Shown here piece by piece: positions 1 to 4,965 of a stretch of 64,000 bases of DNA (position 1 is its first letter; every line of letters starts with the position of its first letter). The notes under the pieces are model-generated. The model saw only the letters and a list, made by a program, of their open reading frames with translations, did no database searches and was not told where the DNA came from. The stretch is taken from contig CAWFDF010000003.1 in the NCBI GenBank assembly GCA_963814585.1, positions 96,001 to 160,000 on the forward strand, in the 5' to 3' direction. The position numbers and the translations under genes are program-made. The stretch is from an uncultured delta proteobacterium. GTDB taxonomy: Bacteria; Myxococcota; Myxococcia; Myxococcales; Anaeromyxobacteraceae.

Positions 1-171
1 CTCTCGGTGATCGCGCCGCTGCACAACGCCGGCTCGTGGCTCTTCCTCTCCTTCTTCGTGCTGCACGTCTACCTGGTCACCACCGGGCGGACCCCGACCC
101 ACCACCTCGCCCCGATGATCACCGGCTACGGCACCCTCGAGTCCGAGGAGCCCGCGGCCGAGCGGAGCTGA
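1..171 (+). CDS. C-terminal fragment of a cytochrome b/b6-domain membrane subunit (PhsC/FdnI-like), 5' end outside window
   Basis: Frame 1 reads LSVIAPLHNAGSWLFLSFFVLHVYLVTTGRTPTHHLAPMITGY...*: a TM helix with two His 14 residues apart plus the 'MITG' tail typical of this family; stop TGA 169-171. Confidence 0.7.
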   Translation, partial: LSVIAPLHNAGSWLFLSFFVLHVYLVTTGRTPTHHLAPMITGYGTLESEEPAAERS

Positions 172-173
172 CC

Positions 174-698
174 ATGGCCACCAGCAAGGAACCCCGTCCC
201 TACCTGAACCCGTACCTGGCCGGAACGCTGCTCGGCGTGGTGCTCTTCCTCAGCTTCTACACCACCGGGGGCGGGCTGGGCGCCTCGGCGGCCCTCTCGC
301 ACATCCAGGCCGGCGTCCTCGACTGGATCGCCCCGGCCCACGTGGACCGGACCGCCTACTTCGCCGAGATGGCCGGCGGCAGCCGCAACACCTGGGACTA
401 CTCGGGCGTCTACATGCTGGTGGGCGCGCTGGTCGGCGGCCTGGTCTCGGGGCTCGTCAACCGGCGCGTCAAGCTGGAGCTCCGCAAGGGGCCGAGCATC
501 TCGACGCCGACGCGGGTGGTCTTCGCCCTGCTGGGCGGGGCCATCATGGGCTACGGCGCGCGGCTGGCCCGCGGCTGCACCTCCGGCCAGGCCCTCTCCG
601 GCGGCGCGGTGCTGTCGGTGGGCAGCTGGGCCTTCGCCCTCTCCATCTTCGCGGCCGGCTACGCCATGGCGTGGTTCGTCCGCCGCCTCTGGAACTGA
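174..698 (+). CDS. YeeE/YedE family sulfur-compound transporter (half-size)
   Basis: ATG at 174 just after the upstream stop; hydrophobic protein with NPYLAG and GARLARGCTSGQALSGG motifs. Confidence 0.88.
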   Translation: MATSKEPRPYLNPYLAGTLLGVVLFLSFYTTGGGLGASAALSHIQAGVLDWIAPAHVDRTAYFAEMAGGSRNTWDYSGVYMLVGALVGGLVSGLVNRRVKLELRKGPSISTPTRVVFALLGGAIMGYGARLARGCTSGQALSGGAVLSVGSWAFALSIFAAGYAMAWFVRRLWN

Positions 699-710
699 TC
701 GGGAGACCAC

Positions 711-2033
711 ATGGCCCCTTACGACCTCTCCAGCCTCGCCGGCACCGTGGCCAGCGCGCTGGTCTTCGGCTCCCTCGGCTTCGGCTTCGGCCTCGCGCTC
801 GAGCTGGGCGGCTTCGGCGACACCCGGAAGCTGGCAGCGCAGTTCTACCTGAAGGACATGACGGTGCTGAAGGTGATGTTCACGGGCATCGTGGTGGCGG
901 CCGTGCTGGTGGCCGGCGCCACCGGCTTCGGCCTCCTCGACATGAGCCGGGTCTGGGTCAACCCGACCTATCTGTGGCCCGGCATCGTCGGCGGCCTGAT
1001 CATGGGCGTGGGCTTCGTGCTGGGCGGCTTCTGCCCCGGCACCACGCTGGTGGCCACCGCCACCCTCAAGATCGACGGCATGCTGTTCCTGCTGGGCGCG
1101 CTCGTCGGGGTCTGGCTCTTCGGCGAGACGGTGGGCAGCTACGAGACCTTCTTCATCTCCTCCAACCTGGGGCGCTTCACGCTACCCGAGTGGCTGGGCC
1201 TGCCGCTGGGCGTGACCGTGCTGCTGGTGGTGGTCATGGCGCTGCTGCTCTTCTGGGGCGGCGAGCTGGCCGAGCAGGTCTTCGGCCGCGGCCGGCGCTG
1301 GGCCGAGGTCTCGCTGCGGCCCAGCCGGCCGCTGACGCTGGTGGGGGCCGGCCTGCTGCTGGCGAGCGTGGTGGTGATGGCCAAGGGCCAGCCCACCCCG
1401 GCGCAGAAGTTCGACCTGCTCGGCCCCGAGGCGCGGCGCCCCGTGGAGGAGCGCGGCGTCTTCGTCCACCCGGCCGAGGTGGTGGCGCTCAAGGACGACG
1501 TCAGCGTGCGGGTCGACATCCTCGACCTCCGCGACGAGCACGACTTCAACCTGTTCCACCTGGGCGGGTCCCGCCGCGTCGACGCGGCGGCGCTGCTGAA
1601 GGCAGGCCAGCTCCAGGAGCTGCTGGCGCAGCCCGGCAGCGCGGTGACCTTCCTGGTCGGCACCGGGGAGGCCCAGGCCCTGGCCACCTGGAAGGAGCTC
1701 AAGGCCCAGGGCGTCGGCAACCTCTACGTCATCGAGGGCGGCATCGACCACTGGCTCGAGCTCTACCCGGCCCCCTCCTGCGTGGCCGAGCGGGTCGCGT
1801 CCAACGACGCCGGCCCGGCCGGCTGGCGCTTCGCCTACGCCACCGGCGACAACCTGCCGTCCGCCTGGCCGGAGCTGCAGAGCTCCCGCGGCTTCCGCTC
1901 GCCCTGCCAGCTGGCCGTCTCCACCGCGGAGGGGCACGAGGGCGGCCACGGGGGGGTGGCCTGGCCCACCTACCAGTTCACCCGCAAGGTGAAGCTGCAG
2001 AGCAAGGCGGCCGTGAAGGGCGGGTGCGGGTAG
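711..2033 (+). CDS. YeeE/YedE transporter fused to a rhodanese-like domain with C-terminal GGCG
   Basis: GGAG SD; N-terminal TM domain with GFCPGT; then ILDLRDEHDFNLFHLGGS...LYVIEGGIDHW rhodanese signature; ends KGGCG. Confidence 0.85.
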   Translation: MAPYDLSSLAGTVASALVFGSLGFGFGLALELGGFGDTRKLAAQFYLKDMTVLKVMFTGIVVAAVLVAGATGFGLLDMSRVWVNPTYLWPGIVGGLIMGVGFVLGGFCPGTTLVATATLKIDGMLFLLGALVGVWLFGETVGSYETFFISSNLGRFTLPEWLGLPLGVTVLLVVVMALLLFWGGELAEQVFGRGRRWAEVSLRPSRPLTLVGAGLLLASVVVMAKGQPTPAQKFDLLGPEARRPVEERGVFVHPAEVVALKDDVSVRVDILDLRDEHDFNLFHLGGSRRVDAAALLKAGQLQELLAQPGSAVTFLVGTGEAQALATWKELKAQGVGNLYVIEGGIDHWLELYPAPSCVAERVASNDAGPAGWRFAYATGDNLPSAWPELQSSRGFRSPCQLAVSTAEGHEGGHGGVAWPTYQFTRKVKLQSKAAVKGGCG

Positions 2034-2120: not shown

Positions 2121-2456
2121 TCACGCCAGCAGCGCCTCGACCGCCTTGACGATGGCGCCGGATCCGATCTGGCCGCCGGTGTGGCGCGGCGCCGCCTCGG
2201 CGCCGCCGCGGAAGAAGAGGAGCGTGGGGCTGCCGAGGACGCCGAGCTCGGTGGCCAGCTCCCGGTTCCCCTGCCGGAAGACCTTCACGAAGCGGGCTCG
2301 GCCGGCCAGCGCGGCCGCCGCCGCCTCGAGGCGCGGGGCCAGCGCCTCGCAGGGTGGGCACTCGGAGGAGTAGAAGTCGACGACGACCGGCTCCCCGGCG
2401 TCGAGGACCTCGCGCTGCCAGTCAGCGGCCTGGATCTCCTTCACGTTGGCGGCCAT
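2121..2456 (-). CDS. Thioredoxin family protein (CPPC)
   Basis: MAANVKEIQAADWQREVL...VVVDFYSSECPPCEAL...GSPTLLFF. Confidence 0.85.
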   Translation of the reverse strand: MAANVKEIQAADWQREVLDAGEPVVVDFYSSECPPCEALAPRLEAAAAALAGRARFVKVFRQGNRELATELGVLGSPTLLFFRGGAEAAPRHTGGQIGSGAIVKAVEALLA

Positions 2457-2849: not shown

Positions 2850-3017
2850 CGCGTCCCTCCGAGGCCGGCATCGTAGCGCCCGCCTGGCCACCCCCAGGGT
2901 GTTCCTTGGGGGTTGCGCCAGTTGGCCGCTCCCTCCTTCTGGGAGCCAGGAGAGGCCGCCAGGGTTCGGCCGCCGAACCGCCTGGCCCGGCCCTGGCTCC
3001 CAGGGGGCAGAGGACAC

Positions 3018-3401
3018 ATGGGATTTCTCGACAAGCTCTTCGGCCCCAGGACCCCGAGGGTCCAGCCCGTCCACGTCACCGACGAGAACTTCATCGACGA
3101 GGTGGCGCGCTCGACGCTGCCGGTGGTGCTCGACGTCTGGAGCCCGGGGTGCGGTCCCTGCGCCATGCTGGAGCCGATCGTCATGGACCTGGCCACCGAC
3201 TACCAGGGGCGGGTCCGGGTCGCCGAGATGAACGCCGCCGAGGCCGTGGAGTACGCCGCCCGGCTCGGGGTGATGGGCACTCCCACCGTCCTCTTCCTCA
3301 GAGGCGGGCGCGAGGTGCACCGGGTGGCCGGCTTCGTCGGCTCGCGCTACCTGCGCGAGGTGGTGGAGGCGGAGCTGCTGGGCGAGAGCCCGGCGGCCTG
3401 A
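3018..3401 (+). CDS. Thioredoxin family protein (CGPC)
   Basis: GAGG SD; HVTDENFIDEV...VVLDVWSPGCGPC...GTPT. Confidence 0.88.
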   Translation: MGFLDKLFGPRTPRVQPVHVTDENFIDEVARSTLPVVLDVWSPGCGPCAMLEPIVMDLATDYQGRVRVAEMNAAEAVEYAARLGVMGTPTVLFLRGGREVHRVAGFVGSRYLREVVEAELLGESPAA

Positions 3402-3564: not shown

Positions 3565-4965
3565 ATGGACACGTCCGAGAGTGACCTCCTCCGCCACCCG
3601 CTCAGCCTGGCTGGCGCCGCCCTCGCCACCGTCTGCGGGTCCCTGGTGGCCGTGTTCTTCGTCGCTTCGATGGCCGGCTACGAAGGGAACCCCTACCAGG
3701 GAATGGTGGTCTTCGTCGTCGGCCCCTCGCTGATGGTGGTCGGGCTGCTGCTCGTCCCTCTGGGCGCCTGGCGCGAGCGTCGCCGCCTGGTCCGCCTGGC
3801 GGCCAGCGGCGGCGTCGAGTCGCCGCTCCCGGTCGTCGACCTCAACTCCCCGCGCACCCGGAAGCTCGGCCTGGCCTTCCTCGCGCTCACCACCGTCAAC
3901 CTGCTGCTGCTCGCGGCCGCCTCGTACAAGGGGCTGGAGGTCATGGACTCCTCTGCCTTCTGCGGCTCATGCCACTCCGTCATGGACCCCGAGGCCTCGG
4001 CCCACGCCCGCTCGCCCCACGCCCGCGTCCGCTGCGTGGAGTGCCACATCGGCCCCGGGGCCGGCTGGTTCGTGAAGTCCAAGCTCTCCGGCTCCTGGCA
4101 GCTGGTCTCGGTGATGTTCCACCTCTACCCGCGCCCCATCCCCACCCCGGTCCACGCCCTGCGCCCGGCGCGCGACACCTGCGAGCAGTGCCACTGGCCG
4201 ACCAAGTTCGTGGGCGACCGGCTCCAGGTCATCACCCACCACGCCGACGACGCGCCCTCCACGCCGCTCAAGACGGTCCTGCTGGTCCACGTCGGCGGCG
4301 CGCAGGGCGTCTCCTCCCGCGGGATCCACTGGCACGTCGACCAGGGCGTGAGGCTCCGCTACCAGGCCGATGAGCGCCGGGAGAACATCTCCGCGGTCGA
4401 GCTGACCACCTCCGACGGCCCACCGCAGCGCTGGGAGGTGGCCGGGGCTGCCGCCGCGGGCGGGACCTGGCGCGAGATGGACTGCATCGACTGCCACAAC
4501 CGTCCCACCCACGTGTACCGGACCCCCGAGGACGAGGTGGATGCGGCCCTCCTGCACGGCCGGCTCGACCCGCGGCTCCCCTTCCTCCGGCGCGAGGCCG
4601 TCAAGGCGCTCCGCGTCGAGTACCCGGGCCAGGCGGCCGCCCTGGCCGGGCTGCGCGATTCGCTCCGCTCCTTCTACGCCGGCCAGCCGCTCCCGGCCGG
4701 CGTCGCCTCCGCCGCGCTCCTCGACGCGGCCGCCACCGAGCTGGCCGCCATCTGGGGCCGCAACGTCTGGCCGCAGATGAAGATCGCCTGGGGCACCTAC
4801 CCGACCTTCCTCGGCCACGAGCAGGCGCCAGGCTGCCTCCGCTGCCACGATGGCGACCACGCCACGCGCGAGGGCAAGGCCATCTCCGGCGACTGCGACC
4901 TGTGCCACACGATCCTGGCGCAGGAGGAGAAGGACCCGGCCATCCTCAAGCAGCTGGCGCCCTGA
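3565..4965 (+). CDS. Membrane-anchored hexaheme cytochrome c with NapC/NirT-like N-terminal region
   Basis: GGAGG SD; three N-terminal hydrophobic segments; six CxxCH motifs (CGSCH, CVECH, CEQCH, CIDCH, CLRCH, CDLCH). Confidence 0.9.
   Translation: MDTSESDLLRHPLSLAGAALATVCGSLVAVFFVASMAGYEGNPYQGMVVFVVGPSLMVVGLLLVPLGAWRERRRLVRLAASGGVESPLPVVDLNSPRTRKLGLAFLALTTVNLLLLAAASYKGLEVMDSSAFCGSCHSVMDPEASAHARSPHARVRCVECHIGPGAGWFVKSKLSGSWQLVSVMFHLYPRPIPTPVHALRPARDTCEQCHWPTKFVGDRLQVITHHADDAPSTPLKTVLLVHVGGAQGVSSRGIHWHVDQGVRLRYQADERRENISAVELTTSDGPPQRWEVAGAAAAGGTWREMDCIDCHNRPTHVYRTPEDEVDAALLHGRLDPRLPFLRREAVKALRVEYPGQAAALAGLRDSLRSFYAGQPLPAGVASAALLDAAATELAAIWGRNVWPQMKIAWGTYPTFLGHEQAPGCLRCHDGDHATREGKAISGDCDLCHTILAQEEKDPAILKQLAP

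Follow-up and report, generated by a model that had tools for sequence, protein, structure and literature searches.

A YeeE-rhodanese fusion with a conserved Cys-tipped tail, encoded behind an OTR-family octaheme gene, as a possible tethered periplasmic sulfur carrier

The sulfur-carrying arm of SoxY has a V-K-V spacing before its GGC, and in Wolinella succinogenes the rhodanese-fold protein Sud is a periplasmic helper which feeds sulfur to a respiratory reductase. Among the YeeE-family proteins, TsuA (PDB 6LEO, 6LEP, 8J4C) has been described as N-out and C-in with nine helices and two essential channel cysteines, C91 and C293 (PMC7449682). SoxT, another member, was reported to import sulfur released from SoxY, and split pairs named PmpA/PmpB, which have the two-gene form found here, were also described (PMC11582611). 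A phsABC-pmpAB-sulfurtransferase cluster, whose function was called unknown, has been reported in Ca. Electryonea clarkiae, Ca. Lernaella stagnicola and Caldithrix abyssi (PMC9324843). The OTR of Shewanella oneidensis (PDB 1SP3, TIGR04315) carries eight CxxCH motifs. OTR turns over free tetrathionate only very slowly, and since the structure was solved no physiological role has been established for it (PMC12949373).

At the start of the window (the whole analysed stretch of 64,000 nucleotides from an uncultured member of the Anaeromyxobacteraceae) and directly upstream of it, the gene for a protein of the same family as Shewanella OTR is accompanied by genes for a dedicated heptaheme/cytochrome b protein, for a YeeE pair and for a Cys-tipped arm. 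The gene order in this conserved operon is otr, heptaheme/cytochrome b, yeeE and yeeE-rhodanese-arm, the arm gene being the last (Table 1). Since this gene lies beside that of an octaheme enzyme, the likely task of the tail is to carry sulfur between OTR and the channel on the outer side of the membrane, and we give about even odds (roughly 0.5) to the reading that the fusion is a tethered periplasmic sulfur carrier serving both.

Table 1 Features of the locus. Positions are those of the window; those prefixed G000:C3 are contig positions in the source genome
Feature	Position	Strand	Basis or remark
OTR-family octaheme gene	G000:C3:92477-93919		TIGR04315; upstream of the heptaheme/cytochrome b gene
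3' end of the 751-aa heptaheme c/cytochrome b561-type fusion	1..171	+	Start upstream of the window, G000:C3:93916
YeeE/TsuA C-terminal half, PmpA-like, 174 aa, predicted N-in/C-in	174..698	+	
Cys135 of RGCTSG, equivalent of TsuA C293, periplasmic side of the channel	576..578	+	Alignment
440-aa fusion: YeeE N-half, anchor helix, Cys-less rhodanese and Cys-tipped arm	711..2033	+	Translation, Pfam, model
YeeE/TsuA N-terminal half, helices H1-H7, PmpB-like, predicted N-out, without C22-equivalent Cys	711..1286	+	Model overlay, alignments
Cys108 of FCPGT, equivalent of TsuA C91	1032..1034	+	Alignment
Additional membrane helix, aa 206-225, preceded by a basic loop; by prediction it directs the C-terminal module into the periplasm	1326..1385	+	
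Cys-less rhodanese-fold domain, aa 254-350; codon 1659-1661 encodes Gly317 at the catalytic position	1470..1760	+	
Basic C-terminal arm with Cys439 (codon 2025-2027); a flexible tip is predicted at aa 434-440	1980..2033	+	

The OTR-family gene is full-length with eight CxxCH motifs, and matched TIGR04315 at 523 bits (cut-off 375) and PDB 1SP3 at E 5e-135. The 751-aa fusion behind it carries PF01292 at residues 547-737 and, in its orthologues, seven CxxCH motifs; no solved relative of this protein was found. Sulf_transp (PF04143) was detected in both YeeE halves, with 54.7 and 74.1 bits (cut-off 27), and each half holds one of the equivalents of C91 and C293. The two halves had been described as complementary, which agrees with our alignments: the 174-aa protein corresponds to the C-half of TsuA with Cys135, and the fusion to the N-half with Cys108. 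The motif RGCTS[G/S] is present in 75/75 orthologues of the 174-aa protein. By domain, cysteines and TsuA fold, the pair belongs to the split PmpAB type of YeeE/YedE (PF04143), and a heterodimeric channel containing Cys135 and Cys108 is predicted. On the fusion, Pfam placed Sulf_transp at residues 35-224 and Rhodanese at 254-350, both above the cut-off, and the translation ends with RKVKLQSKAAVKGGCG before the stop. An NCBIfam search of this product gave no family at cut-off, TsuA models included. Two further cysteines, Cys357 and Cys399, were considered as catalytic residues and rejected: they are kept in 120/121 close homologues, but in just 11/58 and 9/58 diverse ones, and more likely form a lineage-specific disulfide.

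The conservation of the terminal GGCG, which the preliminary description had proposed to check in homologues, could be confirmed. A KGGCG terminus was found in 120/121 close sequences (the query and the best 120 of 4409 matches, 63-91% identity), the exception being a shorter protein with an unrelated end. Genomes were also scanned with a pattern internal to the rhodanese domain, which gave a set of the best 80 of 111 confirmed loci (28-90% identity). By record title these loci represent about a dozen phyla, among them Myxococcota, Chloroflexota, Gemmatimonadota, Calditrichota, KSB1, Spirochaetota, Actinomycetota, Bacteroidota, Planctomycetota and Marinimicrobiota, and 27 of the 80 are Anaeromyxobacter-like or other close kin (at least 48% identity) and thus not independent. 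The tail [GA]GCG(G) is present in 76 of the 80 loci; the other four comprise one with GGG-TGA-G, one with KGGCG in another frame after a frameshift and two cut by contig ends. Clustering at 50% yielded 144 new representatives, of which 62 have both the YeeE motif and a rhodanese, and a Cys lies within the last three residues in 59 of these 62. The 58 diverse rows of a further alignment (A2) also all end in a terminal Cys, but they were hand-picked with the tails already seen, so that 58/58 is no unbiased count. The terminal-Cys tail is therefore confirmed as real and conserved. Lipid anchoring through a polybasic Cys tail was considered and rejected by inference, since the module is already membrane-anchored and a Cys/Sec exchange does not fit it.

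The tail had further been likened to the SoxY arm, V-K-V-x-x-GGC spacing included, and this held in part. GGCG is common to both, but in 54/55 aligned tails 12-13 residues separate the V of the KVK strand from the Cys, and positions -3 to -8 before the Cys are variable and basic, so that nothing beyond GGC(G) is in common with the VTIGGC motif given for SoxY in PMC11237559. Homology was not supported either: the product gave no match to PF13501 (SoxY) at E 0.1 and has a rhodanese fold instead, and a PDB search with the last 30 residues returned no SoxY chain, with two chance matches only. The likeness of the tail to SoxY is an analogy.

The rhodanese domain (PF00581) overlays on GlpE (1GN0) with Z 11.2 and rmsd 2.5 A over 105 aligned residues. 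Its loop, VTFLVGTGEAQA, contains no Cys, and in a profile alignment to solved rhodaneses G317 stands at the catalytic-Cys position. The Cys-less loop, pointed out in the preliminary description for this one protein, is kept across the family: among the 79 loci aligning there, position 317 is S in 46, G in 29, A in 3 and C in 1, and the catalytic Cys is thus missing in 78/79. The remaining locus (L091, Cytophagia by record title) is the sole homologue with both a rhodanese-loop Cys and a Cys tail, and therefore loop Cys and arm are not strictly exchanged. With G317 instead of the first-position loop Cys, the domain does not belong to the catalytic rhodanese sulfurtransferases. A Foldseek search with the whole model gave no match at E 0.001, with rhodaneses ranked on top, and the ESM Atlas returned unnamed rhodanese clusters only. 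The Cys-less rhodanese would serve as a scaffold or docking domain.

The membrane side of this module was predicted from the structure model, the charge distribution and naturally split forms. The AlphaFold model of the fusion (mean pLDDT 85.2, pTM 0.77) overlays with residues 15-184 on residues 1-181 of TsuA 6LEP (Z 8.4, rmsd 3.3 A, 162 aligned); the overlay concerns the N-half only, and Z 8.4 is modest for a helical protein, yet it agrees with the sequence matches. The overlaid part represents H1-H7 and ends inside, and the sixth helix (206-225) then crosses outwards. Mean K+R counts per segment over 149 sequences were 0.02 for the N-terminus, 3.8 for loop 33-54, 0.8 for 73-87, 1.0 for 106-122, 1.1 for 139-165 and 3.9 for 184-207. 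The re-entrant loop 106-122 is cytoplasmic by alternation, and its mean of just 1.0 makes it the one uninformative point, which counts against the carrier reading. In naturally split forms, rhodanese and tail make up a separate protein of 207-211 aa, in which the equivalent of the anchor helix is an N-terminal signal-anchor. The partner half, which matches the TsuA C-half, is basic at both ends. Taken together, the TsuA mapping, the K+R counts and the signal-anchor place rhodanese and arm, as a prediction, on the periplasmic side, opposite to TsuB/YeeD. Within the arm, residues 421-430 average a pLDDT of 87 and the tip 434-440 falls below 50. A complex prediction of OTR (48-480) with rhodanese and arm gave a median of 0.19, the mark being 0.32, and is counted neither for nor against binding.

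The neighbourhood of the arm gene is well kept. Of the loci whose upstream flank reaches 6.6 kb or more, 57/59 contain otr, multiheme, cytochrome b and first yeeE together, and the two exceptions look truncated. The cultured Anaeromyxobacter oryzae Red232 is among the carriers of the operon (locus L024). The cytochrome b redox module, to which the arm had been connected in the preliminary description, is indeed present upstream; however, it does not stand alone but is part of the heptaheme/cytochrome b fusion that accompanies the OTR-family octaheme, and OTR is the more plausible partner of the arm. In a reciprocal survey, 201 genomes of the source phylum were searched for OTR, and places of at least 500 bits were counted by hand comparison. 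In 23 of these 27 places a same-strand yeeE N-half is no more than about 5 kb away, with the tail seen in 21 of the 23; the other four include two at contig ends and two (genome G047) with cytochrome b only. Neither YeeE nor arm occurs within about 8 kb of the seven OTR places of 392-440 bits (7/7) or of the two strong places in G047. OTR thus does not always travel with the arm, which argues against a carrier serving OTR. A divergent sigma-54 activator gene lies upstream of otr, and between the two a GG-N10-GC element resembling a sigma-54 -24/-12 site was recognised by eye (L001:12398-12415). Neither a sigma-70 promoter nor a terminator was found in positions 1-2600 of the window. Further upstream (L001:6664-10539, minus strand) a methyltransferase-radical SAM fusion and an OmpP1/FadL-type outer-membrane channel are encoded; a similar channel gene recurs in 8/80 related loci. 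On the other side, a membrane multiheme cytochrome c of NapC/NirT-like type follows at window positions 3565-4965 (plus strand).

Compared with the described systems, the fusion lies outside SoxY, TsuAB and the catalytic rhodaneses. With TsuA it has the fold and the two channel cysteines in common (PMC7449682); in contrast to the TsuAB importer, the gene is split, TsuA C22 has no equivalent and a TusA-like gene is no regular neighbour (1/80 loci with three own-genome TusA queries). TsuB/YeeD is soluble and cytoplasmic, whereas the Cys-bearing helper here is fused and predicted to be periplasmic, and the context is respiratory rather than assimilatory as for TsuA. SoxY and the arm, which is predicted to be periplasmic like SoxY, both have a flexible C-terminal GGCG with one Cys; unlike SoxY, the arm is membrane-tethered on a rhodanese fold, and SoxZ was not found in the 91.7% complete source genome. 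Sud (PDB 1QXN) gave a weak match to the rhodanese domain, but it is soluble and uses the rhodanese active-site Cys, which is absent here, the Cys being on the tail. By analogy, the fusion would most plausibly work like a membrane-tethered SoxY or Sud. The cluster of PMC9324843 shares a split YeeE (PmpA/B) and a rhodanese-type gene behind a periplasmic reductase, and one PmpA/B-sulfurtransferase fusion was noted there, but its enzyme is the Mo enzyme Phs instead of OTR; its substrate was called unknown, and its description there makes no mention of a missing catalytic Cys, a Cys tail, the membrane side or Sec. The relevant passages of PMC13047784, PMC13490349, PMC6896113 and PMC10376724 do not describe the module, and full-text searches of an open-licence library yielded no account of the Cys tail, the Cys-less periplasmic rhodanese, the OTR link or a Sec form.

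Exchange between Cys and Sec marks redox-active residues. The locus with the GGG-TGA-G ending (L080, followed by TAG) belongs to the Marinimicrobiota phylum, and its relatives were searched in 151 genomes of this phylum, with matches in 12. A TGA in place of the Cys codon, with a Gly codon and a stop behind it, was found in 4/4 close homologues (61-100% identity, L080 included), whereas all seven distant homologues read in this phylum end with an ordinary Cys codon. A SECIS-like hairpin with a 6-bp stem and a G-led loop begins 19 nt after the TGA; 24/24 cells pair, and three pairs are changed on both sides across the four sequences. Its score was reached by 5/500 shuffles and slid controls fell short, all of this with only four related sequences; the single-sequence SECIS fold is weak (z -1.4). 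As to the Sec machinery, G201 has selA, while selB, which was not found in this small assembly, occurs in each of the three remaining TGA-bearing genomes. With a TGA at a conserved Cys, a hairpin and Sec machinery, the four homologues qualify as predicted bacterial selenoproteins, and Sec likely replaces Cys439 in them. Judged from these TGA forms and the covarying hairpin, Cys439 is likely a redox-active, reactive residue. The selenoproteins tabulated in a 2026 review include YeeE GUxSG, several rhodanese forms and a protein of the OTR family; a Sec form of the Cys tail was not seen in those passages (PMC13188914). If the prediction is true, a selenoprotein family which current annotation truncates at GGG would be added. 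The gene ends of L102, L103, L104 and L105 (GGG-TGA-G-stop with the covarying hairpin) would be its unannotated members, and P0190, a database protein with 9 members, is truncated there too.

In the proposed mechanism of the tethered carrier, Cys439 would receive sulfane sulfur or a thiosulfate group, the source being polysulfide, tetrathionate or the channel, and hold it as persulfide or thiosulfonate. Electrons would pass from quinol through cytochrome b and the seven c hemes to OTR, which would reduce the S-S bond on the arm and free the thiol, while the channel would supply or remove sulfur species. The weakest points of this scheme are the nature of the substrate and the transport direction. 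Besides the features of the protein and its operon, the scheme is favoured by the divergent soxY/soxZ beside otr in lucinid symbionts (PMC11237559) and by the scarcity of TusA/YeeD, the cytoplasmic partner of TsuA, at these loci (1/80), and the rise of otr transcripts with tetrathionate in sediment microcosms speaks for sulfur use (PMC8528874). OTR acting on arm-bound sulfur would explain its poor work on free tetrathionate, and if the substrate in these lineages is protein-bound sulfur, the question of OTR function becomes directly testable. However, the best in-vitro activities of OTR are with nitrite and hydroxylamine, and mutants of Shewanella ANA-3 point to sulfite, a free anion (PMC12949373); both speak against the carrier reading. 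If it is true, split YeeE (PmpAB) pairs would gain a respiratory role, and a new class of carriers would exist on the periplasmic side of the channels.

The alternative which survives best, although unlikely, is a self-contained sulfurtransferase, the strict form of the preliminary interpretation, in which the arm Cys fills the empty rhodanese loop and loads the channel, the cytochromes being merely co-regulated. The invariant FNLFH of the rhodanese domains (55/55), the small residue at the Cys position and the fusion of arm and channel in most loci agree with it, but the model leaves the tip unplaced and L091 has both cysteines. Moreover, small secreted proteins of 101-108 aa with a Cys tail are encoded directly upstream of distant OTR-like octahemes without any rhodanese (L119:4781-5083, L120:4796-5098, L148:7183-7506 and L149:9673-9996). 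They end with KKAGGC or RKTAGC and belong to no Pfam family, and L148 and L149 also have no YeeE within 8 kb.

An oxidative role, in which OTR oxidises sulfur held on the arm in the manner of Sox cytochromes on SoxY, electrons are fed into the quinone pool and sulfane sulfur is imported by the channel, has a low probability. It would be in line with the SoxY-like GGCG tip and periplasmic location, with the uptake of SoxY-released sulfur by SoxT (PMC11582611) and with the divergent soxY/soxZ genes that adjoin otr in lucinid, sulfur-oxidising symbionts (PMC11237559). Against this, neither soxY nor soxZ was found in the source genome (91.7% complete), the sister modules contain PsrABC/Phs-type enzymes, which are known reductases, and otr transcripts were raised with tetrathionate in anoxic sediment microcosms (PMC8528874).

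We consider equally improbable a thiol-redox relay, in which reducing equivalents would cross the membrane by way of the YeeE cysteines and the arm, so as to mature or reactivate the periplasmic enzyme. A Cys or Sec ending a flexible arm is typical of redox shuttles, and the cysteines line up across the membrane. However, the arm has a single Cys without resolving partner, there being no other Cys in 42/58 diverse modules; the operon already has its own electron-input protein, and the characterised YeeE proteins move sulfur compounds (PMC11582611, PMC7449682). Thioredoxins are neighbours in 3/80 loci only. For this reason two thioredoxin-like genes just downstream in the window, with CPPC and CGPC motifs (2124-2456, minus strand, and 3017-3401, plus strand), were rejected as part of the system.

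That the arm handles selenium, tellurium or a metal for detoxification or cofactor delivery is highly improbable, despite the predicted Sec forms, the movement of selenium by a YedE-like protein in Methanococcus (PMC11582611) and the weak ExtJ match (E 1e-4, below cut-off) and CusF/OB-like predicted fold (TM 0.61) of a small Cys-tail protein, since P0001 falls well short of the cut-off for the selenium YedE families, the neighbour clusters recurring in at least five loci include no genes for metal or selenium handling, and a single Cys is a poor metal site.

Returning to the tethered carrier, it was also considered whether sulfur on a membrane-tethered, YeeE-wired Cys/Sec arm is the substrate of OTR-family octahemes and of many Psr/Phs-type molybdoenzymes alike, which would make it a widespread mode of sulfur respiration and a reductive mirror of SoxYZ. 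We offer this wider proposal tentatively. Distant relatives were sampled in 20 regions, hand-picked mostly around weaker matches. At least 11 of the 20 combine a molybdoenzyme of 740-770 aa with a YeeE pair and a Cys tail; three molybdoenzymes were Pfam-checked, with PhsA as the best NCBIfam match, below the cut-off for two. PsrABC-type Mo enzymes adjoin the YeeE pair, the Cys-less rhodanese and the Cys tail in these relatives. Three regions have OTR with a plain cytochrome b, and in two a distant octaheme lies beside a 101-aa secreted protein ending with KKAGGC. A periplasmic sulfur-type redox enzyme is the recurring theme of the Cys-tail loci, which speaks for the tethered carrier.

The source genome itself contains a second YeeE locus (L150:3074-11674, G000:C16:37074-45674). 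Its order is an ArsR-rhodanese fusion, a secreted tandem rhodanese, a full-length YeeE and an anchored Cys-less rhodanese ending with GGGCL, followed by an enzyme of the type II DMSO-reductase family, for which the assembly shows the alpha gene split over several frames; a further ORF downstream ends with KGCL. Two other database proteins (P0282 and P0338, 375-389 aa) match the YeeE N-half in their C-terminal part and are possible natural fusions of the two halves in permuted order.
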